DNA of 14,261 nt. Source: a virus. Each line of letters starts with the position of its first letter. Position 1 is the first letter of the stretch. Under the pieces are notes generated by a model, which saw only the letters and a program-made list of their open reading frames with translations, was not told where the DNA came from and did no database searches. Below are positions 1 to 9,925 of this stretch, piece by piece. The position numbers were made by a program, and so were the translations under genes. The stretch is from UHGV virus genome UHGV-0074784; one strand, given 5' to 3'.

Positions 1-1
1 T

Positions 2-787
2 TCTTTGTCGGTAAAAGTGGTCATTATGCTCCAGCCTCCGGTGCTTTTGGCATTAACGCGTAAGGCGCGTCGCCAGGGTAACCGCAATGCGTCGAATGTT
101 TATCAGCTTAACGTTGCGAAGCTTCAGGCAGCGGCATTTTCTCAACTGTCAGATTCTGACCCGTCAAAATCTGACGCATCAAAATCTGACCCGTCAAAAT
201 TTGATGCGTCGAAATCTGGCAAAAAAGCGGGTTTTCACCCGTCAGAATCTGGCGGGGATCCGTCAGTAAAATCAAAACATGATCCGTCAGATAAAAAACC
301 TTCTCGTCCGGACGCTTCGCAACCGGACACGCAGACGGATGAACAGGATTTTTTAACTCGCCATCCTGATGCGGTTGTATTCAGCCCTAAAAAGCGCCAG
401 TGGGGAACGCAGGATGATTTGACCTGCGCACAGTGGCTCTGGAAAAAAATCATCGCCCTGTACGAGCAAGCCGCCGAATGTGACGGCGAGGTGGTTCGTC
501 CCAAAGAACCGAACTGGACAGCCTGGGCAAACGAAATTCGCCTGATGTGTGTGCAGGATGGTCGTACTCACAAACAAATCTGCGAGATGTACAGCCGCGT
601 CAGCCGCGATCCGTTCTGGTGCCGTAACGTGCTCAGCCCGTCGAAGTTGCGGGAAAAATGGGATGAGCTTTCCCTGCGCTTATCGCCGTCCGTCAGCACG
701 CACACAGAAAAACGCGAAGACCCGTACTTCAAAGCCAGTTACGACAATGTGGACTACAGCCAGATCCCGGCGGGATTCAGGGGGTGA
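2..787 (+). CDS. Phage replication protein with DnaT-like (primosomal protein I-like) C-terminal domain; 5' end probably outside the window (alternatively starts at ATG 26)
   Basis: Frame is open from the window edge to the stop at 785-787. The C-terminus ...DYSQIPAGFRG closely resembles the E. coli DnaT C-terminus (...SQIPPGFRG) as I recall it. An S/D/K-rich low-complexity linker is encoded by tandem repeats. Position upstream of the nin/RusA region fits a lambdoid replication module. Confidence 0.6.
   Translation, partial: SLSVKVVIMLQPPVLLALTRKARRQGNRNASNVYQLNVAKLQAAAFSQLSDSDPSKSDASKSDPSKFDASKSGKKAGFHPSESGGDPSVKSKHDPSDKKPSRPDASQPDTQTDEQDFLTRHPDAVVFSPKKRQWGTQDDLTCAQWLWKKIIALYEQAAECDGEVVRPKEPNWTAWANEIRLMCVQDGRTHKQICEMYSRVSRDPFWCRNVLSPSKLREKWDELSLRLSPSVSTHTEKREDPYFKASYDNVDYSQIPAGFRG
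155..214 (+). repeat. Tandem ~15-bp repeat units (TCTGACCCGTCAAAA-like), including a perfect 16-bp direct repeat (155-170 and 185-200) and a perfect 11-bp inverted repeat (173-183 and 200-210), inside the replication gene; iteron-like
   Basis: Read directly: TCTGACCCGTCAAAAT occurs twice 30 bp apart; GACGCATCAAA is the reverse complement of TTTGATGCGTC. Further CCGTCAG-containing copies follow at about 236, 259 and 281, then an A-rich stretch. Confidence 0.55.
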
Positions 788-789
788 TC

Positions 790-1278
790 ATGAGTCTTTT
801 GAATGACGTTCAGAAATTCATTGAAGCCCATCCGGGCTGTTCTTCCGGAGACATTGCGGATGCTTTTGCAGGTTACTCACGGCTGCGCGTTCTGCAGTCA
901 GCAAGCAAGTTACGTCAGAGTGGGCGTGTGGCTCACCGTTGTGAAGGAGATACACGCAGACATTTCCCGCGCCTGACTGAGAGAGCGCAGGAGCCGGAAC
1001 CACAACCAGTTCGTGAAACCAGACCTGTGCGCAATTTCTATGTCGGCACTAACGATCCCCGGGTGATTTTGTGCCTGACCCGCCAGGCTGAAGAACTGGA
1101 GTCCAGGGGCTTATACCGTCGTGCTGCAACGGTGTGGATGGCGGCATTCCGTGAAAGCCACTCCCAGCCAGAACGAAACAATTTTCTGGCGCGTCGTGAG
1201 CAGTGCTTACAGAAAAGCAGCAAGCGCGCTGCATCGGGTGAAGAGTGGTATCTGTCAGGGAATTACGTGGGGGCGTAA
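790..1278 (+). CDS. Putative regulatory protein: N-terminal winged-helix-like region plus C-terminal PerC/Pch-like segment (tentative)
   Basis: ORF 784-1278; ATG at 790 preceded by a GGGGG Shine-Dalgarno-like run at 779-783. The C-terminal motif LESRGLYRRAATVWMAAF resembles the GLWRRAA..W signature I associate with PerC-family regulators in prophages. The start overlaps the upstream stop (translational coupling). Confidence 0.4.
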   Translation: MSLLNDVQKFIEAHPGCSSGDIADAFAGYSRLRVLQSASKLRQSGRVAHRCEGDTRRHFPRLTERAQEPEPQPVRETRPVRNFYVGTNDPRVILCLTRQAEELESRGLYRRAATVWMAAFRESHSQPERNNFLARREQCLQKSSKRAASGEEWYLSGNYVGA

Positions 1279-1604
1279 TGACGACGTTAACTCAATGCCA
1301 GCATCAGGTGCTGGATATGCTGATTTCTTACCAGAAAGAGCGTGGCTTTCCGCCAACCAATCAGGAGGTGGCAACCATGCTGGGATACCGTTCAGTGAAT
1401 GCAGCGGTAGAGCATCTTCGTGCACTGGAGAAAAAAGGCGTCATCACGATAAAGCGTGGCGTGGCCCGGGGGATCACGCTTCATACCACAGTGAAGGACG
1501 ACGACAGCGAGGCAGCCGGGATTATCCGCGCACTGCTTGCCGGTGAGGAAAACGCCAGACTGCGTGCAGCCCACTGGTTACATGAGAGGGGCCTGAAAGT
1601 ATGA
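1278..1604 (+). CDS. LexA-like N-terminal DNA-binding-domain protein lacking the S24 peptidase domain
   Basis: LTQCQHQVLDMLISYQKERGFPPTNQEVATMLGYRSVNAAVEHLRALEKKGVITIKRGVARGITL aligns by eye with the LexA N-terminal domain (LT..Q.EV...I......G.[37 protein letters not shown]). The protein is only ~108 aa, with no Ser/Lys peptidase domain or Ala-Gly cleavage region. ATG at 1278 overlaps the upstream stop (TAATG). Confidence 0.7.
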   Translation: MTTLTQCQHQVLDMLISYQKERGFPPTNQEVATMLGYRSVNAAVEHLRALEKKGVITIKRGVARGITLHTTVKDDDSEAAGIIRALLAGEENARLRAAHWLHERGLKV

Positions 1605-1990
1605 AGCTGATCCTGCCTTTCCCGCCCAGCGTGAACACGTACTGGCGACACCCCAACAAAGGGGCGTTTGCTGGTAAGAGTCTGATAAGCGCAGCGGGGC
1701 GCAAATTCCAGAGCGCGGCATGCGCAGCAATAGTTGAGCAGTTACGTCGTCTGCCGAAACCAACGTCGGCACCTGCTTCAGTGGAGATCGTGTTGTTTCC
1801 TCCGGATAACCGGATCCGCGATCTGGACAACTATAACAAGGCGCTGTTTGACGCCCTGACCCACGCGGGTGTGTGGGAAGACGACAGACAGGTGAAAAGA
1901 ATGCTGGTGGAGTGGGGACCGGTTATCCCGGAAGGGAAGGTCGAGATCACTATCAGTAAGTATGAGAAACCGGCGGGTGCAGCCGCCTGA
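1601..1990 (+). CDS. rusA: RusA-family Holliday junction resolvase (crossover junction endodeoxyribonuclease)
   Basis: 129 aa with the characteristic N-terminus MKLILPFPPSVNTYW and acidic residues (DLDNYNKALFDAL) typical of RusA. ATGA start/stop overlap with the upstream gene. Canonical nin-region position. Confidence 0.9.
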   Translation: MKLILPFPPSVNTYWRHPNKGAFAGKSLISAAGRKFQSAACAAIVEQLRRLPKPTSAPASVEIVLFPPDNRIRDLDNYNKALFDALTHAGVWEDDRQVKRMLVEWGPVIPEGKVEITISKYEKPAGAAA

Positions 1991-2009
1991 TTAAGAGGAG
2001 AAACGAAGT

Positions 2010-2807
2010 ATGAATAATCTGATGGTTATTGATGGTATTGAAGTTCGTCGTGATGCTTATGGGCGTTACAGCCTGAACGATCTGCACAGGGCTGCCGGTT
2101 CTCTGGATAAGCATAAGCCTGCATTCTGGCTCCGCAATGAGCAAGCTGAACGTTTAATAAGCGAGTTGCAGATTTGCAACTCGGTCAATATAGAGCCAGT
2201 TAACGTTATTCGTGGCGGAAATAACCAGGGGACGTATGTCTGCAAAGAACTGGTGTATGCCTATGCAATGTGGATCAGCCCGTCATTCCATCTGAAGGTG
2301 ATCCGTACTTTCGATATGGTAACCAGCACACCGGAAAAATTATCCGGGCAGGCTGCTGACAAGATGCAGGCTGGCGTGATCCTGCTGGACTTTATGCGCC
2401 GGGAATTAAACCTGTCTAACTCATCAGTGCTTGGTGCCTGTCAGAAACTCCAGGAGGCTGTTGGCTTACCGAATCTGGCACCGCGCTATGCCATTGATGC
2501 TCCTGCTGATGCACACGATGGCTCAAGTCGCCCGACACTGTCACTGAGTGCACTGCTGAAACAGTATGGTATCCGCCTGACGGCTAATCAGGCATATCAC
2601 CAGATGGTGAAACTGGGGATCGTCGAGCAGCGCGAACGATACAGCCGTACCGCGATTAACAACATCAAAAAATTCTGGTCGCTGACAGCGAAAGGTTGCA
2701 TGTTCGGCAAGAACATCACCAGTCCCGCAAATCCGCGTGAGACGCAGCCGCATTTCTTCGAATCCCGATTCCCTGAGCTGTTAAAGCTGCTCGATACCGT
2801 TCATTGA
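2010..2807 (+). CDS. KilA-N domain protein (antirepressor-like) with an uncharacterised C-terminal domain
   Basis: N-terminal ~100 aa (IEVRRDAYGRYSLNDLHRAAG...KPAFWLRNEQAERLISEL) matches the KilA-N pattern. Strong RBS AGGAG at 1994-1998 upstream of the ATG. Confidence 0.75.
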   Translation: MNNLMVIDGIEVRRDAYGRYSLNDLHRAAGSLDKHKPAFWLRNEQAERLISELQICNSVNIEPVNVIRGGNNQGTYVCKELVYAYAMWISPSFHLKVIRTFDMVTSTPEKLSGQAADKMQAGVILLDFMRRELNLSNSSVLGACQKLQEAVGLPNLAPRYAIDAPADAHDGSSRPTLSLSALLKQYGIRLTANQAYHQMVKLGIVEQRERYSRTAINNIKKFWSLTAKGCMFGKNITSPANPRETQPHFFESRFPELLKLLDTVH

Positions 2808-2808
2808 G

Positions 2809-3810
2809 GTGACCGTGAGAGCACTACTGACCCCTGAAATTGCCCCGTGTATGGGGATCGTATTGTTCAGGCCAGGTTCAGAGCTGATGCCCCTGTTTAT
2901 GCAGGGGCGTGTCCTGCTGGAGCCTGAGCCGGAACGTTATTCATCTTTCGCCAGTGGTGCCGTTCCGGCGGCATCACAACCGCTGGCGGATGATCCTGCC
3001 GTTCGGGCCGTGTTCCGCAATGAGGCAGTGATCCGTCGTGCTGGTGGCGTGGAATGTCTTGAAAGCTGGTTACTTCGTGAAAAAGGCTGCCAGTGGCCTC
3101 ATTCCGACTGGCACAGCGAGAACATGACCACAATGCGGCACGCGCCGGGCGCAATCCGTCTGTGCTGGCACTGCGATAACCAGTTGCGCGATCAGTTCAC
3201 GGAACGGCTGGAATCAATGGCAACGGATAACTGTGCCCGCTGGGTGTTATCTGTTGTGCGCCGTGATCTCGGTTTTGATGATAGTCACGTTGTGACAATG
3301 CCGGAACTGTGCTGGTGGCTGGTTCGTAATGACCTGGCGGATGCCTTACCGGAAAGTGCAGCCCGTAAGGCACTGAGATTACCGAAGCCTGTTGTGCCGT
3401 CTGTTACCCGGGAAAGTGACCTTGTGCCTTCGGTTCCTGCCACCAGCATCATCCAGGATAAAGCGAAAAAGGTGCTGGCGCTGAAAGTGGATCCGGAGTC
3501 GCCGGAGTCTTTTATGTTACGCCCAAAACGTCGCCGCTGGGTTAATGAAAAGTACACGCGCTGGGTTAAGACACAGCCGTGTGCATGTTGTGGAAAGCCT
3601 GCTGATGATCCCCACCACCTGACAGGTCACGGTCAGGGTGGAATGGGAACAAAAGCGCATGACCTCTTTGTGTTGCCTTTGTGCAGAAAGCATCACGACG
3701 AGCTGCATGCGGATACCGTGGCATTTGAAGAGATGTATGGCTCCCAGCTGGAGCTGATATTTCGTTTTATCGATCGTGCGCTGGCGATCGGCGTAATTGC
3801 GACAGCTTAA
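2809..3810 (+). CDS. DUF968-family phage protein (YdfU-like) with C-terminal Cys/His HNH-like zinc-binding motif
   Basis: 333-aa ORF with GTG start. C-terminus CACCGKPADDPHHLTGHG...LPLCRKHHDELH has CxxC...HH...CxxHH spacing typical of DUF968/HNH-like proteins encoded next to Q in lambdoid prophages (Qin ydfU-like arrangement). Confidence 0.65.
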   Translation: MTVRALLTPEIAPCMGIVLFRPGSELMPLFMQGRVLLEPEPERYSSFASGAVPAASQPLADDPAVRAVFRNEAVIRRAGGVECLESWLLREKGCQWPHSDWHSENMTTMRHAPGAIRLCWHCDNQLRDQFTERLESMATDNCARWVLSVVRRDLGFDDSHVVTMPELCWWLVRNDLADALPESAARKALRLPKPVVPSVTRESDLVPSVPATSIIQDKAKKVLALKVDPESPESFMLRPKRRRWVNEKYTRWVKTQPCACCGKPADDPHHLTGHGQGGMGTKAHDLFVLPLCRKHHDELHADTVAFEEMYGSQLELIFRFIDRALAIGVIATA

Positions 3811-4521
3811 GTGTATGGAGCGCTGAGAAGTATGAATCAACAAGACTTGAATTTTGTCAGAATAGAACTACGTCGTGCGCTGTTTGACTTCTCTGGGGGG
3901 ACAAAAGGGCAGCTTGAGGCTTTCACTGAACACCCACCAGCAGACAAAAATGCCACTCCACGCCGTGGAATTCATCTTGTCGAACTCGAAGGTGATAAGG
4001 GACCACGCTTTGTTAACTCGCTTTCCGCGCCATTGTACGTGCAAGAAACACGTAGCCGCCCCAGGCCAATGCCGCCGATAAAAGATGTAGAATTTGAGTC
4101 CGCGCCGTGGCGTAGGGCAGTGTCCGCGCTTAGTGGATACCAGCAGGCTTGGTTGCGGTACTGTTACGGTTTTGACCTTAACTATACGCACCAGGTGATG
4201 ATGTGTGAATACGTCTGGAAGGCTTATCAGAAATGCTTGGGTAAAAACTCACTTCAGGAGCGCGTAGTAAAAAAACTAATAGGCCTAGTATGGCTTGCAG
4301 GACAGGAAATTGCTGCAACCCGAAACAATGAAACCTATAAAGACTACGCTGGTGCGGCGCTGGCCCGTATGGTTAGCGTTGACCGTTCGACATGGTTGCG
4401 CGTCTATTCAGGCCACTGGGCTGGGTTAAAGGCCGCTTTTACCCAGCTTGATGAGTCTGCGCTGGCCATGGCTCTTGAATACTATGAGGATGAAGAAGCT
4501 CTCAAAGTGGGAGAAATATGA
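3811..4521 (+). CDS. Putative late-gene antitermination protein Q (non-lambda Q family); true start may be ATG 3832
   Basis: Sits immediately upstream of an intergenic region with an intrinsic terminator and the lysis cassette, and downstream of the DUF968 gene (same order as ydfU-quuQ). Assignment is mainly positional; no clear zinc-finger motif as in lambda Q. Confidence 0.5.
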   Translation: MYGALRSMNQQDLNFVRIELRRALFDFSGGTKGQLEAFTEHPPADKNATPRRGIHLVELEGDKGPRFVNSLSAPLYVQETRSRPRPMPPIKDVEFESAPWRRAVSALSGYQQAWLRYCYGFDLNYTHQVMMCEYVWKAYQKCLGKNSLQERVVKKLIGLVWLAGQEIAATRNNETYKDYAGAALARMVSVDRSTWLRVYSGHWAGLKAAFTQLDESALAMALEYYEDEEALKVGEI

Positions 4522-4613
4522 CGTAAATTTCACTATCTCCTTCAAACGCGCTTGCAAAATACAACAAAATAAGCCATATTGGAAGCATGTTTGATATGTT
4601 GCCAAAGTTTTAT
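4522..4613 (+). promoter_or_regulatory. Putative late promoter / Q-utilisation (qut) region
   Basis: Positional inference only. TTGCAA at 4553-4558 is -35-like, but no clean -10 hexamer at 17 +/- 1 bp could be found by eye. Confidence 0.25.
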
Positions 4614-4640
4614 AAACCCGCCGACGAGCGGGTTTTTTGA
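4614..4640 (+). terminator. Rho-independent terminator (tR'-like) downstream of Q
   Basis: AAACCCGC-CGACGA-GCGGG followed by TTTTTT: 5-bp GC stem (4617-4621 / 4628-4632), 6-nt loop, T6 run at 4633-4638. Confidence 0.8.
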
Positions 4641-4714
4641 TATGCGACATAACCTATAACATTTTTTATAAAATAAAATATAATTGCTTTACCATTATCC
4701 TGTGAGTTGAGCAA

Positions 4715-5500
4715 ATGTATATATTTGAATTGACCAAACCTGGCAACTGGCTTGAAAGTGAAGACAAAGAGTGGTCTTGGAAAATAGAACGGCTTTTGGA
4801 CCATCTTGAATTTGCATTTTATGAGGCTAATGTTGCATTAAATTTATTTATGCAGCAGCAAAACAATCAAATAGAACAACAAGGGGTTTCGCAATTGCAA
4901 TGGGAAAAAGAAATGCAAGAACGAAGAACCATCGAAACACTAGTTCGTGAGGAGTTAGGTTTATCCCCTTTTGAGAATCCTGAAAACATACAATTTGAGG
5001 TGGACGCGAGGTTTAAACGAGAAAAGTGGAGTTCTGGTGAAATTCCACGTAGCCACAAACATTGTGTGATTTTTATTTATGCAAAATCTTTTCTTTATTC
5101 TCTTGATACTATTGATAAATTTATAAAGGTTATTTCGAATGAACCTTATGCTCCTGAGTCGATAAAAGCCCTACACGATCAGATAGGTAAAGATTTTCCT
5201 GATCTCAGAGGGGTTAGGAATTCAACTCAACACCTCGAAGATAGGGCTCGAGGGCTTGGCGCAGGGAGAGAACCGAAGCCTTTGAATCTCCAGCCTATAA
5301 GTAATACCTTCATAAATGCACCGCAAGGTGCTTTGATATTAAATAATCTGAATGGCACCAAATTCGGGTCAACTATGTCTGATGGTCACTATGGTGAAGT
5401 GGACATTTCACCTGAATCGTTATCAAAAATGCAAAGTATTGTTCAGGGCGTTCTTGACTCGTTTAAGTGGGTTGGTAATCAGCAACACTTACCAAGTTAA
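4715..5500 (+). CDS. Hypothetical AT-rich cargo (moron) protein, 261 aa, with an R-N-x3-H (HEPN-like) motif; candidate toxin or abortive-infection effector
   Basis: Long ORF in a visibly AT-rich island (about 30-43% GC in sampled 60-bp lines versus ~52% in flanking phage genes). VRNSTQHLEDR at about residues 168-178 fits the Rx4-6H HEPN signature with the typical polar residue after R. Flanked by terminators at 4614-4640 and 5523-5549. No signal peptide or TM segment apparent. Confidence 0.6.
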   Translation: MYIFELTKPGNWLESEDKEWSWKIERLLDHLEFAFYEANVALNLFMQQQNNQIEQQGVSQLQWEKEMQERRTIETLVREELGLSPFENPENIQFEVDARFKREKWSSGEIPRSHKHCVIFIYAKSFLYSLDTIDKFIKVISNEPYAPESIKALHDQIGKDFPDLRGVRNSTQHLEDRARGLGAGREPKPLNLQPISNTFINAPQGALILNNLNGTKFGSTMSDGHYGEVDISPESLSKMQSIVQGVLDSFKWVGNQQHLPS

Positions 5501-5522
5501 CTAAACTTAATTATTCATATTA

Positions 5523-5549
5523 AGGCTGCCATATGGCGGCCTTTTTATT
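5523..5549 (+). terminator. Rho-independent terminator downstream of moron A
   Basis: AGGCTGCC-ATAT-GGCGGCCT forms an 8-bp stem with one G-U wobble, followed by TTTTTATT. Confidence 0.7.
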
Positions 5550-5593
5550 CCCTTCACTTTTGAGAGGATTCACAGCAATTAAGAGGGGGCTAA

Positions 5594-5980
5594 ATGTCCG
5601 ATCCGATTTCCGGCACAGGGTTAGCTGCTGGAGTCCTGACAGGCGCTAGTGTTTATGGACTGCTGACCGGAACTGATTACGGTGTTGTATTTGGCGCATT
5701 TGCAGGGGCTGTATTCTACATCGCAACAGCAGCAGATCTGAGTTTATCGCGTCGACTGGCATATTTTATCGTGTCGTATATTGCCGGAATCCTTTGCTCT
5801 GGGTTGGTTGGCTCCAAGCTGGCAAACTTGACCGGATACAGTGATAAACCTCTGGATGCTATTGGTGCCGTAATCGTCTCTGCTTTAGCCGTTAAAATCC
5901 TGACGTTTCTGAATAACCAGGATATCGGTTCGCTGGTGGCGCTTATAACGCGCCGGGGAGGTTCAGGTGGAGCTAAATGA
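5594..5980 (+). CDS. Phage holin (multi-TM small membrane protein)
   Basis: 128 aa, glycine/alanine-rich hydrophobic segments (GLAAGVLTGASVYGLLTG, VVFGAFAGAVFYIATAA, IVSYIAGILCSGLVG), charged C-terminus. RBS AAGAGGGGG upstream. Immediately precedes the endolysin. Confidence 0.7.
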   Translation: MSDPISGTGLAAGVLTGASVYGLLTGTDYGVVFGAFAGAVFYIATAADLSLSRRLAYFIVSYIAGILCSGLVGSKLANLTGYSDKPLDAIGAVIVSALAVKILTFLNNQDIGSLVALITRRGGSGGAK

Positions 5981-6248
5981 CCCGACAGCAACTATAAATG
6001 CGCTGTTATGTGCTTGTGTTGTTATTACTCTGATGTTTTATCGTCGTGGTGATTCGCGGCATCGTCCTTGGGTTTCACGTTTAGCCTGGCTGATTACTGT
6101 TACATACAGTGCTGTTCCGTTGGCCTATCTCTGTGGGATTTATCCCCATTCCTCATGGCCCATTATCGTGGCGAATACTATTTTTCTTTCCGTGCTGGTG
6201 GCCGTCAGAGGCAACGTTGCACGTCTGGTTGATCATCTGAGGCACTAA
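5967..6248 (+). CDS. Second small membrane protein of the lysis cassette (holin/antiholin-like)
   Basis: 93 aa with GTG start preceded by GGGGAGG; two or three hydrophobic segments (LLCACVVITLMFY, LAWLITVTYSAVPLAYLCGI, IIVANTIFLSVLVAV). Overlaps the upstream holin end and the endolysin start. Confidence 0.5.
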   Translation: MELNDPTATINALLCACVVITLMFYRRGDSRHRPWVSRLAWLITVTYSAVPLAYLCGIYPHSSWPIIVANTIFLSVLVAVRGNVARLVDHLRH

Positions 6249-6862
6249 TGAACCAACAATTATTTCAAAAGGCGGCTGGTATTAGCGCCGGGCTGGCTGC
6301 GCGCTGGTTTCCGCACATTGATGCGGCGATGAAGGAATTCGGCATTACAGCACCAGCGGATCAGGCAATGTTTATCGCTCAGGTAGGCCATGAGTCGATG
6401 GGGTTTAGCGCCGTAGTTGAAAATTTTAACTACACACCATCTGCGCTGGTGGCGTCGTTCGGAAAGAGGATTACACAGCAGCAGGCTGATGCCCTTGGCA
6501 GAACATCCGGACATGCAGCTCGTCAGGATGCTATTGCCAATCTTGTGTATAGCAACCGACTGGGTAACAAAGCACCAGGTGATGGCTGGAAATATCGTGG
6601 TAGAGGATTAATTCAAATCACTGGCCTCCATAATTATCGCATCTGTGGCGCGGCGCTGAAGTTAGATCTGGTGACTTCACCTGAACAACTGGAACAGGAG
6701 CTACAGGCCGCGCGCTCAGCTGCATGGTTCTACACCTCTAAAGGTTGCATGGTCTACGGTACCGATATTAATCGTGTTACGCGCATCATTAACGGCGGTC
6801 TGAACGGTATTGAGGATCGTAAGGTTCGATACAACAAGGCGCGGGCGGCGCTGCTGGTATGA
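6248..6862 (+). CDS. Endolysin, glycoside hydrolase family 19 (chitinase-like lysozyme)
   Basis: 204 aa with motifs typical of GH19 phage endolysins (FIAQVGHESMGF, YRGRGLIQITGLHNY, INGGLNG). TAATG start/stop coupling with the preceding gene. Confidence 0.85.
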   Translation: MNQQLFQKAAGISAGLAARWFPHIDAAMKEFGITAPADQAMFIAQVGHESMGFSAVVENFNYTPSALVASFGKRITQQQADALGRTSGHAARQDAIANLVYSNRLGNKAPGDGWKYRGRGLIQITGLHNYRICGAALKLDLVTSPEQLEQELQAARSAAWFYTSKGCMVYGTDINRVTRIINGGLNGIEDRKVRYNKARAALLV

Positions 6863-7251
6863 AGATGAGTTATTGGGCGCTCATTTTAACGTTTATTGCT
6901 TGTATTGCTGGTGGTCTTGTTTGGTCAGCGAATCACTATCATGGAAAGTTTCTGGAGGAGCAGAAGCGTGCTGACGCTGCGGAACAGCGAGCTGATTCTA
7001 CTGAGGCTATCACCGCGAATGTTCTGCGTACTATGGCAATAACGAACATCATTCAGGAGGCGAATCAATATGCAAAACAGCAGATCGCACTGGAGTCACA
7101 GAGAACCCAGGAAGATATCAAAGTGGCTGTTGCGGATGATGATTGTGCTTCACGTCCTGTGCCTGCTGCCGCTGCTGACCGGTTGCGGAAGTACGCGAAC
7201 AGTTTACGTGAGCATTCCGAAGACTCCACTACCAGTCAGCTTGACTTCTGA
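6859..7251 (+). CDS. i-spanin (Rz-like)
   Basis: 130 aa with N-terminal TM helix (YWALILTFIACIAGGLVW) followed by a charged, coiled-coil-like periplasmic domain. ATGA overlap with the endolysin stop. Contains the start of an out-of-frame lipoprotein ORF. Confidence 0.7.
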   Translation: MKMSYWALILTFIACIAGGLVWSANHYHGKFLEEQKRADAAEQRADSTEAITANVLRTMAITNIIQEANQYAKQQIALESQRTQEDIKVAVADDDCASRPVPAAAADRLRKYANSLREHSEDSTTSQLDF

Positions 7252-7384
7252 TACACCTGTACCGTTTATACCCAACCCACTGACGTATGGTGCAAGTCTT
7301 GATTTGAATGTAAGTTTGTTATCCGCGTTGGCTCAATGTAATAGGGATAAGTCTGATATCAGAATCATTGATAATCAAAATTGA
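7136..7384 (+). CDS. o-spanin (Rz1-like outer-membrane lipoprotein), overlapped architecture
   Basis: +1 frame relative to Rz; MMIVLHVLCLLPLLTGC supplies a signal peptide with lipobox LTGC. Mature part is proline-rich (PKTPLPVSLTSDTPVPFIPNP). Extends 133 bp beyond the Rz stop. Confidence 0.7.
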   Translation: MMIVLHVLCLLPLLTGCGSTRTVYVSIPKTPLPVSLTSDTPVPFIPNPLTYGASLDLNVSLLSALAQCNRDKSDIRIIDNQN

Positions 7385-7465
7385 TGTATATTTTTATCGT
7401 CATGTAGATAACGAACAAGGTATTCCTCTGATACGTTTCGTTGAATACAGGTCATGGGTAGGCAT

Positions 7466-7497
7466 TGCAATATCGCTTCGAAATTATCTGTGATAAT
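7466..7497 (+). promoter_or_regulatory. Possible sigma70 promoter for moron B (extended -10 TGTGATAAT; -35-like TTGCAA at non-optimal spacing)
   Basis: TGnGATAAT at 7489-7497 in the AT-rich intergenic region about 90 bp upstream of the ATG at 7588; TTGCAA at 7466-7471 gives a 20-bp spacer. Sequence-only prediction. Confidence 0.25.
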
Positions 7498-7587
7498 GCT
7501 CTTAATTTTGAATGTATGTATTTGGGAAAAGAGATAAAGTAATAGTCTAATTAATGGAGATATCCACAAAACACAAGAGGGACTATT

Positions 7588-8094
7588 ATGCGACCAGATC
7601 AATTTTTCTATCCAGATACTTTTACCTTTAATTCATCCACCTATTATGGTCAACGTGACTCATCTAAAGGTCGATTGTATATTCTTATTGAAAGTGACTT
7701 ATGTCCATTTAATATCGGCGATATCATTGTGCAAAAAATGGTCGACAGGGAAAGACTATTTGAAGTGCTTGATTACGAGGTACAAATTAGTCTCGAGGCT
7801 GGTTGCCCTGGCTACTCACATTTGGCGGTATTGATAGTGAAGGCATTGGATGTAAAAGAGAAGCCGAAGCAGATTACGACCCATTTGACGTTTAACGGTG
7901 CTATTAATGCTGGTGGTGATTTTCAAGCCGGTAATGACAATTCGATCACAAAGAATATAACCATTCAACAACTACATGATGCTATAGAGCATTGCAATGA
8001 TCCAGAGGTTAAAAGCCTTTGGCAAAAGCTATTGGAAAATCCGACGTTTGCTTCAATTGCTTCAATATTGGCAAAAAGTGCTTTAGGACAGTAA
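7588..8094 (+). CDS. Hypothetical AT-rich cargo (moron) protein, 168 aa, unknown function
   Basis: ORF with good RBS (AAGAGGGA, 7571-7578) in an AT-rich island (~35% GC in a sampled line) between the spanins and the HNH/terminase genes. Followed by an intrinsic terminator. Soluble, no TM segment or signal peptide, no recognisable catalytic motif. Confidence 0.55.
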   Translation: MRPDQFFYPDTFTFNSSTYYGQRDSSKGRLYILIESDLCPFNIGDIIVQKMVDRERLFEVLDYEVQISLEAGCPGYSHLAVLIVKALDVKEKPKQITTHLTFNGAINAGGDFQAGNDNSITKNITIQQLHDAIEHCNDPEVKSLWQKLLENPTFASIASILAKSALGQ

Positions 8095-8103
8095 TTCATC
8101 AAG

Positions 8104-8127
8104 CCCCATTCAATATGGGGTTTTTAT
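8104..8127 (+). terminator. Rho-independent terminator downstream of moron B
   Basis: CCCCAT-TCAAT-ATGGGG: 6-bp stem (8104-8109 / 8115-8120) followed by TTTTTAT. Confidence 0.75.
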
Positions 8128-8151
8128 GCTTATTACAAAGAGTTTTCTTCA

Positions 8152-8502
8152 ATGCCACCACGAACTCCAAAAGCCTGCCGTGTTCGCGGGTGCCGCCGTA
8201 CCACCACTGACCCGTCAGGTTATTGCGAAAGCCACAAAAGCGAAGGCTGGAAGCAATACAAGCCAGGACAATCCCGTCATCAGCGCGGCTACGGTTCGAA
8301 GTGGGACGTTATCCGCGCGCGTGTGCTGAAACGTGACAAAGGTTTATGTCAGTTATGTCTGCGCGCTGGTGTGGTGCGTGAGGCGAAAACTGTTGACCAC
8401 ATCATCCCTAAAGCGCATGGCGGCACTGATGCCGACTGTAATCTGCAGAGTCTGTGCTGGCCGTGTCATAAGGCGAAGACGGCCCGTGAACGGATTAAGT
8501 AA
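8152..8502 (+). CDS. Phage-associated HNH endonuclease (terminase-associated type)
   Basis: 116 aa with CxxC zinc-finger pairs (CRVRGC...C, CQLC, CWPCH) and the HNH catalytic region DHIIPKAHGG...N. Located immediately upstream of the small terminase, as in HK97-like cos packaging modules. Confidence 0.85.
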   Translation: MPPRTPKACRVRGCRRTTTDPSGYCESHKSEGWKQYKPGQSRHQRGYGSKWDVIRARVLKRDKGLCQLCLRAGVVREAKTVDHIIPKAHGGTDADCNLQSLCWPCHKAKTARERIK

Positions 8503-8520
8503 GAACCAGTTCCCACTGCC

Positions 8521-8590
8521 AGAGGGGAGGGGCGGGTCAAATCCCTGTGACCTGACGTCTTCCGGACTGCCCGCCCCATCGTTTTTTTAT
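8521..8590 (+). other. G/C-rich inverted repeat (GGGGCGGG ... CCCGCCCC) followed by a T7 run, between HNH and terS; candidate cos region and/or terminator
   Basis: 8-bp perfect inverted repeat at 8529-8536 and 8570-8577, then ATCGTTTTTTTAT. In HNH-dependent cos phages the cohesive-end site lies between the HNH and terS genes. Confidence 0.35.
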
Positions 8591-8627
8591 ACCCGCGAAA
8601 AATGAAATTTAACCAGGAGTGCCGCAT

Positions 8628-9122
8628 ATGGCTGGAACGGCGGGGCGTTCCGGGCGTCGCCCCAAGCCAACGGCGCGCAAGGCGCTGGCCGGAAACCCCG
8701 GCAAGCGAGCCCTGAATAAAGATGAACCTGTTTTTACGCCCATCAAAGGTGTTGAGCCACCGGAGTGGTTCGCAGAAGAAAATCTCCCTCTCGCCACGAT
8801 CATGTGGCAACTGACAACCAAAGAACTCTGCGGTCAGGGCCTGTTGTGCGTGACTGACCTCGCGGTGCTTGAGCGGTGGTGCGTGGCCTATGAGTTCTGG
8901 CGACGTGCCGTGAAAAATATTGCCATACAGGGCAACACCATCACCGGTGCAATGGGCGGCAGGGTCAAAAATCCGGAGCTGACCGCCAAAAAAGAACAGG
9001 AGTCCGAGATGAGCAGCACGGGGGCAATGCTCGGACTCGACCCCAGCAGCCGCCAGCGTCTGATTGGCCTGGCGGGGCAGAAGAAAGCCACTAACCCGTT
9101 TCTGAAAATCATCGAGTCATGA
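8628..9122 (+). CDS. Terminase small subunit (P27-family type)
   Basis: About 165 aa with a basic N-terminus ([25 protein letters not shown]), typical of P27-family small terminases. RBS AGGAG at 8615-8619. Directly precedes the large terminase with ATGA overlap. Confidence 0.8.
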
Positions 9123-9925
9123 GCCGGAAATCTTACCCCAACGTAAATGCTGCCAATCAGTATGCCCGTGATGTTGTGCGCGGAAAGATTGTGGCCTGCC
9201 AGTTTGTGATTCAGGCCTGCCAGCGCCATCTTGATGACCTGATGGCGGAAAAAAGTAAGTCGTTTCGTTACCGCTTCGACAAGGACCTGGCTGAACGGGC
9301 TGCCAAATTTATTCAGCTGTTGCCGCACACCAAGGGGGAGTGGGCATTCAAGAGGATGCCCATCACGCTGGAGCCGTGGCAGCTCTTTGTGATCTGCTGT
9401 GCGTTTGGCTGGGTCAATAAAGGCTCCCGGCTGCGCCGCTTCCGGGAGGTGTATACCGAAATCCCCCGTAAGAACGGCAAATCGGCAATCTCTGCCGGTG
9501 TTGCCCTGTATTGTTTTGCCTGTGATAACGAGTTTGGCGCGGAAGTGTATTCCGGTGCCACGACAGAGAAACAGGCGTGGGAAGTCTTTCGCCCGGCGCG
9601 ACTGATGTGTAAACGCACACCCATGCTGACGGAAGCGTTCGGGATTGAGGTTAACGCCTCAAACATGAACCGTCCGGAGGATGGCGCGCGGTTTGAACCG
9701 CTGATCGGTAACCCCGGTGATGGTTCATCACCCCACTGTGCCGTGGTGGATGAATATCACGAGCACGCCACCGATGCGCTTTATACCACGATGCTTACCG
9801 GGATGGGCGCGCGACGTCAGCCACTGATGTGGGCCATCACCACCGCCGGGTACAACATTGAGGGGCCGTGCTACGACAAGCGGCGGGAAGTTATCGAGAT
9901 GCTCAACGGTTCGGTATGTTTCTGA
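9119..9925 (+). pseudogene. Terminase large subunit, N-terminal ATPase domain only (C-terminal nuclease domain missing)
   Basis: Walker A-like EIPRKNGKS and Walker B-like AVVDEYHE are present, but the ORF stops after 268 aa (...EMLNGSVCF). Intact large terminases of this type are roughly twice as long. Downstream sequence switches to tail-gene coding. Confidence 0.75.

Follow-up and report, generated by a model that had tools for sequence, protein, structure and literature searches.

What might a temperate phage do with the DNA-binding head of LexA when the self-cleaving peptidase domain is not attached to it? The question is raised by a small gene in UHGV virus genome UHGV-0074784, a stretch of 14,261 nucleotides (all of it called the window below) that represents an SfV-like prophage with 96% identity to Shigella phage SfV. 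An examination of the letters alone (the sequence-only reading) had recognized a LexA N-terminal winged-helix domain in the product of this gene by eye, and had proposed that such a protein could occupy SOS boxes or a phage operator as a repressor that RecA is unable to inactivate. We show here that the protein has the LexA winged-helix fold and lacks the S24 peptidase, and the best explanation of the gene is that it is a small DNA-binding regulator gene which temperate enterobacterial phages derived from the LexA DNA-binding domain. The earlier functional proposal is a plausible hypothesis, and the sites that the protein might read are weighed below.

A LexA head without the S24 peptidase

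A profile search agrees with the assignment made by eye: the protein matches the whole of the Pfam profile PF01726 (LexA_DNA_bind, positions 1-65 of 65) with E=7.8e-19 and 67.7 bits against a cut-off of 23.7. In a phmmer search of the PDB it aligned without gaps with E. coli LexA residues 2-69 (E=4e-15), and tblastn with E. coli LexA as query placed LexA residues 1-68 on window positions 1278-1481, gaplessly and with 50% identity (E=2e-17). The winged helix-turn-helix of the head follows that of the LexA-DNA structures with a root-mean-square deviation of 1.2 Å (E. coli LexA: PDB 1lea, 1jhf, 3jso). Neither MarR nor any other winged-helix family gave a better match to the head in sequence or in fold, and repressors of the BlaI/MecI and DtxR/MntR types share with it only an architecture generic to the fold, at 11-22% identity, with no evidence of homology in the tail. 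A phage repressor of the CI type (HTH_3 plus S24) was likewise rejected, since its helix-turn-helix is of another type, the protein has no S24 domain and its gene lies in the nin region; the intact relatives of this prophage encode a separate, S24-containing cI.

No PF00717 (S24 peptidase) match was found in the protein, which ends at residue 108, and a search for the LexA C-terminal domain in six frames of the whole window gave nothing (best E>2). TIGR00498, the model of the canonical LexA equivalog, scores 66.4 bits, below its cut-off of 110.95, and is matched over positions 1-91 of 203. The protein thus differs from E. coli LexA in having no S24 peptidase/dimerization domain, no Ser119/Lys156 and no conserved Ala-Gly site, and also in being phage-borne and encoded in a delayed-early operon. 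Because the S24 peptidase is absent, RecA-stimulated self-cleavage is unable to inactivate it, just as the sequence-only reading had said. PHROG 362 is matched over the full length of the protein (E=6e-58, protein 1-108 against profile 1-106); its name, 'transcriptional repressor', is an annotation and not a tested function. An alternative in-frame GTG at 1245 would add 11 residues, and since all homologues begin MTTLT we take the ATG at 1278 to be the real start.

A conserved helical tail and the question of a cleavage site

Behind the head, an acidic linker leads into a 35-residue tail, predicted to form a helical hairpin that is not present in LexA (Table 1). The tail is conserved in relatives of only 39-50% identity, in which A97 and L101 are invariant and a hydrophobic pattern is kept at positions 82, 83, 86 and 87. 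The hairpin is a candidate dimerization or partner-binding module, and we only infer dimerization.

The HMMER and TIGR00498 alignments run on to about residue 90 and thereby place A88-G89 opposite A84-G85 of LexA, which may reflect an origin from a complete lexA gene. This pair is replaced in close and distant homologues alike (LLANEE, LLVGEE, MVERES; AN, VG, ER, TR, DD and others), and because it is not conserved we do not read it as a cleavage site. The idea of a vestigial site cut in trans by an S24 protease is rejected on the same grounds. The claim that the cleavage site is absent entirely stands in so far as the protein has neither a conserved site nor a peptidase, with the nuance that an Ala-Gly pair does align with that of LexA.

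Contact residues and a tentative reading

The bases of LexA's DNA are contacted by S39, N41, A42, E44 and E45 (PMC3091678). In the window protein residues 38-50 read RSVNAAVEHLRAL, with R38 and S39 just ahead of the recognition helix, and four of the five contacts (S39, N41, A42 and E45) are kept; E44 is replaced by V, as is P40, and T5, Q8, R38, K53, R64 and G65 are also identical to LexA. Few or none of 151 family-like sequences depart from S39 and N41; A42 and A43 are each kept in about 92% of them, and about 85% have an acidic residue (E or D) at position 45.

The reading that we favor, while granting it a little less than an even chance, is that the protein would act as a RecA-insensitive dimeric regulator of CTGT-type operators. 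The tail hairpin would dimerize the protein and so stand in for the C-terminal dimerization domain of LexA, and the two flexibly tethered heads would read an inverted repeat of CTGT-like half-sites, that is, operators of the SOS-box type. We count in its favor the LexA fold, the four retained contacts and the conserved tail, together with the ratio of nonsynonymous to synonymous divergence (dN/dS) and an operon position that is conserved across genera, both given below. A dominant effect on host LexA through mixed dimers, which the sequence-only reading might have implied, is impossible because the LexA dimerization domain is absent; competition for DNA sites is the only conceivable way of acting against host LexA, and it would need dimerization through the C-terminal hairpin, as we infer.

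Two forms of LexA serve as functional models for the idea of the sequence-only reading. The structures of non-cleavable (Ind-) LexA mutants (G85D, S119A; PDB 1jhf, 1jhh) are among the top matches, and these mutants share with the window protein a LexA head that RecA* cannot remove; they still dimerize through the S24 domain, whereas the window protein has another C-terminal module, a candidate dimerizer. The LexA 1-84 cleavage fragment is, like the window protein, a free LexA head, and without a dimerizer it binds operators only weakly.

Structure libraries hold many other short phage proteins with a LexA DNA-binding domain. In other lineages, P0129, P0154, P0157 and P0160 (140-165 residues) carry two such domains in tandem and no S24, in a pseudo-dimer-like arrangement (in P0154 two stretches match PF01726, E=1.6e-40). 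The tandem-head proteins show that two heads are a recurring solution once the S24 dimerizer is lost, and we count this too for a dimeric regulator.

Distribution and selection

A search of 5426 complete E. coli genomes found near-identical DNA in 2231 (~41%), where the copies are annotated 'LexA family transcriptional regulator', 'LexA repressor' or 'LexA family protein'. A further 61 records that contain it are of phages, among them SfII, SfIV, SfV, mEp460, cdtI and the Stx2a, Stx2c and Stx2k phages; the phages named here encode 93.5-98.1% identical proteins. Profile searches reveal a large family limited to prophages of Enterobacteriaceae (Escherichia, Shigella, Citrobacter, Salmonella, Cronobacter, Klebsiella, Enterobacter, Kosakonia, Atlantibacter and Hafnia), every member of which, down to 39% identity, consists of PF01726 only and the same helical tail. 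Since dN/dS against other alleles is 0.08-0.27, the gene is evidently maintained by purifying selection. Full-text literature searches found no functional study of the enterobacterial family, and only gp6 of phage GIL01 surfaced; a phage LexA homologue without S24 is a kind already known, and the enterobacterial family is widely annotated but uncharacterized.

SOS boxes or a private operator?

Several observations weigh against the favored reading, and the first of them lie in the recognition helix itself. The glutamate that LexA has at position 44 is never kept in the family, which shows V, A, T, N or L there; at position 45 some subfamilies have L, Q, T, A or G (SSNAVLLH in Klebsiella and SVNTIAGH in Citrobacter are examples), and positions 44-46 as a whole vary. 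To our knowledge all Enterobacteriaceae have one and the same SOS box, and the variation at positions 44-45 therefore points to diversified specificity; one would expect a universal SOS-box mimic to keep 44-46 constant. A second observation concerns the history of the alleles. Between the window and a Citrobacter prophage (L010, 3001-3318) the LexA-like gene has a synonymous divergence (dS) of 2.97, which is saturated, and 65% protein identity, against a dS of 0.83 and 90% identity for the adjacent rusA, and very different alleles have therefore been exchanged at a conserved position; such a pattern is typical of swapped specificity alleles. In addition, the hydrophobic moment of both tail helices is no different from that of shuffled sequence and so lends no support.

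Nor did the CTGT-N8-ACAG boxes that the sequence-only reading had suggested looking for turn up in this prophage. The window contains no exact box, and its 8 one-mismatch matches are at chance level (5.1±2.1 expected). An approximate weight matrix built from 20 E. coli sites found nothing above 8.2 bits in the window (the 20 sites themselves score 12.6-27.1), and it likewise detected no SOS box inside the E. coli SC476 prophage (L002), the closest intact relative and also our reference for the deletions described below; the host dinB box in L002 was recovered as a positive control.

The characterized precedent also points away from SOS boxes. GIL01, a temperate tectivirus of Bacillus thuringiensis, encodes among its early genes gp6, a 66-residue truncated LexA homologue about 44% identical to the head of host LexA, which binds its own palindrome, GaCACAnnTGTGaC, over the -35 element of the late promoter P3 and activates transcription (Fornelos et al. 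2018; PMC6182141). As the sole characterized example of such a phage protein activates transcription from a site that is not an SOS box but its own, repression at SOS boxes is one option among several. Like the window protein gp6 is a phage-encoded LexA DNA-binding domain without S24 (PF01726 only, E=7.9e-14), but it has no tail, and its recognition helix is rebuilt (S-H-K-T-A-H-R-Y), keeping only S39 of the five LexA contacts; its recognition residue K38 corresponds to N41 of the window protein. The two proteins gave no BLASTP alignment at E<=100, and since no pairwise similarity is detectable we regard them as independent domestications, analogous and not orthologous.

The main alternative to the favored reading, if a rather unlikely one in our judgment, is that the protein would be a phage-specific transcription factor with a diverged operator of its own, as gp6 is, turning some promoter of the phage or the host on or off without acting on the SOS regulon. 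Besides the gp6 precedent, the variable helix and the exchanged alleles, which are usual for specificity determinants, the presence of other regulators among the neighbors (PerC, KilA-N, Q) speaks for such a role. However, the E. coli/Shigella clade keeps four of the five LexA contacts and gp6 has replaced four of the five, and whereas gp6 activates a late promoter, the late genes of this type of phage are already under the control of Q. Nor was a candidate operator found: the operon has hardly any non-coding DNA, and among five carriers (SfV, SC476, SfII, mEp460 and Stx2k) no non-coding perfect palindrome with 6-bp arms is shared except a terminator downstream of Q. The other palindromes of this kind that the five share are coding-region coincidences. 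Such an outcome would be expected if the target lies elsewhere than in the phage or is imperfect, and we count it for the regulator of CTGT-type operators.

One of the shared palindromes lies within the LexA-like gene, where a perfect 17-bp palindrome, CCAGCA-TCAGG-TGCTGG, covers codons 7-12 (window 1298-1314) in all five carriers; it may form a hairpin in the RNA close to the start codon, or be a coincidence of coding.

SOS boxes in other carrier phages

Strong SOS boxes do occur in other carrier phages, where they precede dinI-like morons or stand at the beginning of a methyltransferase gene or inside cI; none of these locations is universal among carriers. Klebsiella prophages (L082-L084, 4362-5393) have a 130-residue LexA-like homologue downstream of dinI, and a perfect consensus SOS box, TACTGTTTATTTATACAGTA, overlaps the -10 element of the promoter upstream of dinI. 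On the same strand dinI is followed by a small open reading frame, the homologue, a 67-residue open reading frame, DUF968, a Q-like gene and lysis genes, and no terminator was predicted in these prophages between the SOS-box promoter with dinI and the homologue. The Klebsiella LexA-like gene may itself be SOS-induced, and its grouping with another SOS-damping gene is a point that we count for the regulator of CTGT-type operators.

The box inside cI is a consensus 20-bp site, TACTGTATATAAAAACAGTA (cI sense strand, 25.8-27.1 bits), in the part of the coding sequence that specifies the linker between helix-turn-helix and S24. Among the copies scanned it was seen in SfII, mEp460, Stx2k, one S. flexneri prophage and Cronobacter prophages, and Stx2a and PhiR phages share the same cI segment. 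A GAGGA motif and an in-frame GTG lie downstream of the box, and host LexA may exert control from within cI, for example on an internal promoter or a C-terminal CI fragment. We considered and rejected a functional link between this box and the LexA-like gene: all 13 of the 13 E. coli/Shigella phage records with that type of cI carry the gene, but in about 37 further carriers the cI is of another type, and the gene is missing from Salmonella phages whose cI is related, and we judge the association to be module linkage and not functional evidence. The site at the methyltransferase gene, found in SfV and mEp460, is SOS-box-like (TACTGTAAAAATAAACAGTG, 22.5 bits) and lies over codons 3-9 of this gene, which is downstream of Q and encodes a 350-residue DNA methyltransferase.

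Operon context and possible partners

The sequence-only reading had placed the gene in a translationally coupled, nin-like region next to rusA, and this is correct. The LexA-like ATG overlaps the TAA of the upstream PerC-like gene (TAATG, 1276-1280), and its TGA overlaps the ATG of rusA (ATGA, 1601-1604); because of these stop/start overlaps on both sides, coupling to both neighbors can be read straight from the sequence. In intact phages the gene lies in the delayed-early (nin) operon on the PR side, between the replication genes and Q, and in all contexts examined it was in a nin-type region, as a rule with rusA, DUF968 and Q nearby. In relatives down to 41% identity rusA is directly downstream, its start in most cases overlapping the LexA-like stop (Shigella, Citrobacter, Kluyvera, Kosakonia, Enterobacter, Silvania and phage mEp390), and DUF968 is downstream in every context with enough downstream sequence, including some that have no rusA (Kosakonia L012, Enterobacter L014, Klebsiella L082-84).

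This constancy allows for a different kind of function, in which the protein would be a DNA-targeting or accessory subunit for RusA and/or the DUF968 HNH-type protein and not a transcription factor, its hairpin serving as a docking element. We consider this improbable. The overlap with rusA and the presence of DUF968 even where rusA is missing would be expected of such a subunit, and there is one natural fusion: in P0156 (240 residues; a single sequence on a single 401-kb ENA contig) a LexA-like head is followed by a C-terminal DUF968/HNH domain that is 64% identical to residues 215-331 of the window's DUF968 protein (2809-3807). The fusion may hint at a functional link or be a deletion artefact in a decaying prophage, and as a singleton it carries little weight. 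Moreover, the LexA-like gene and rusA of Cronobacter have a gene on the reverse strand between them, and the co-occurrence of these genes is explicable by a shared mosaic module.

The window is a defective prophage

The window prophage is defective and has no immunity region. Its genes run from a truncated replication O-like gene through the PerC/YfdN-like regulator, the LexA-like gene, rusA and KilA-N to DUF968/HNH, Q, an AT-rich moron, lysis genes, an HNH endonuclease, TerS, TerL and baseplate genes (Table 1). Relative to the SC476 prophage, a first deletion removed 4.36 kb (L002 14056-18416) with cI (ymfK-like), cro, ymfL, the PR/PL region and the 5' end of the replication gene; window positions 1-55 are the yfdT-side left arm, joined to the middle of the replication gene, whose reading frame matches its PHROG profile only from profile position 67. 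A second deletion removed about 11 kb of head and tail genes, from the terminase C-terminus through the tape-measure gene, and the gene for the large terminase subunit is cut after its ATPase domain and joined to DNA-circularization/baseplate genes. With cI, cro and PR/PL lost, the window copy has no way of acting on a phage operator within its own prophage, and the sequence-only proposal is set aside on that point.

Table 1. Positions of the features discussed (window coordinates unless another sequence is named)
Feature	Position	Strand	Basis or remarks
LexA-like gene (SfV orf42 / PHROG 362)	1278..1604	+	108 residues, ATG 1278 to TGA 1604, stop codon included
LexA-type winged helix-turn-helix domain, residues 1-68	1278..1481	+	helices 6-22, 28-35, 40-52; strands 56-58, 66-68
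Recognition helix, residues 40-52	1395..1433	+	alignments
Acidic linker, residues 69-74	1482..1499	+	low confidence; predicted local distance difference test score (pLDDT) <50 for residues 71-75 in both models
Predicted helical hairpin, residues 75-103	1500..1586	+	helices 75-87 and 93-103; pLDDT ~86
PerC/YfdN-like regulator gene, upstream	784..1278	+	PF06069 E=6.8e-9; phrog_1324
rusA (Holliday-junction resolvase; SfV orf43), downstream	1601..1990	+	PF05866 E=1.2e-14; phrog_34
Rest of nin-type operon	2010..4521	+	Pfam and PHROG matches
KilA-N	2010-2807	+	nin-type operon
DUF968/HNH	2809-3810	+	nin-type operon
Antiterminator Q	3811-4521	+	nin-type operon
First deletion junction	53..55		3 bp shared; window 1-55 = L002 14001-14055, window 53-9916 = L002 18417-28292
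Second deletion junction	9901-9915		~15 bp shared sequence
cI-internal SOS box	L004 (phage SfII) 29167-29186; also L005 31970, L006 7725, L008 103, L085 1190		
Methyltransferase SOS-box-like site	L001 (SfV) 21987-22006; L005 (mEp460) 41021-41040		

These losses raise a further possibility, real though of low probability, that the family is functional and the window copy an inert passenger in a decaying prophage that no longer has a promoter for it. Consistent with this, a consensus scan of the + strand found no sigma-70-like promoter upstream of the gene (window 1-1278), and the window allele has three private substitutions (Q9H, A71T and V80A) relative to the other seven E. coli/Shigella alleles. 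However, the LexA-like reading frame is intact and of full length, as are its neighbors, dN/dS against other alleles (0.09-0.27) gives no sign of relaxed constraint, and read-through or weak promoters are beyond the reach of a consensus scan.

The AT-rich moron between Q and the holins (4715-5500, + strand) has a GC content of 0.33-0.41 against ~0.50 around it, terminator-like hairpins at 4614-4635 and 5522-5543 and a promoter-like site of its own at 4656-4684. Its 261-residue product has no match in Pfam, NCBIfam or PADLOC and only one in PHROG (5322, unknown function); it is possibly an accessory or defense gene. Rfam and tRNA scans of the window found nothing.

Proposed mode of action and its meaning for the phage and its host

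If the protein is a RecA-insensitive dimeric regulator of CTGT-type operators, it would be made only once the early operon of the phage is on, typically after host LexA has been cleaved, and it would re-occupy LexA-type operators during lytic growth in a manner to which RecA is indifferent. Candidate targets are the SOS genes of the host, LexA-controlled morons and LexA-controlled functions of co-resident elements, and the outcome would be an SOS program that is damped or reshaped in lytic growth. In its broadest form, which we put forward with considerable doubt, the proposal is that lambdoid and SfV-like phages, including Stx2-converting phages, would carry a hairpin-dimerized, RecA-insensitive LexA mimic that closes SOS operators again when the early operon is on. 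Such a mimic would shut off the host SOS response, silence LexA-controlled morons and antirepressors of competing prophages, or occupy the cI-internal SOS box in phages of the SfII/mEp460/Stx2 type.

For now, the result amounts to the correct assignment of a domain in a family that had been annotated before, here in a defective prophage. If it is true that the protein reads SOS boxes and is uncleavable, it would be a phage-encoded brake on the SOS response, with possible consequences for prophage induction, Shiga-toxin release, SOS mutagenesis and the competition among co-resident prophages. If it reads an operator of its own instead, as gp6 does, the LexA head would have been made into a private regulator by phages twice, independently. 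The relevance of the gene comes from how common it is: some 41% of complete E. coli genomes carry it, and so do Stx2a, Stx2c and Stx2k phages.

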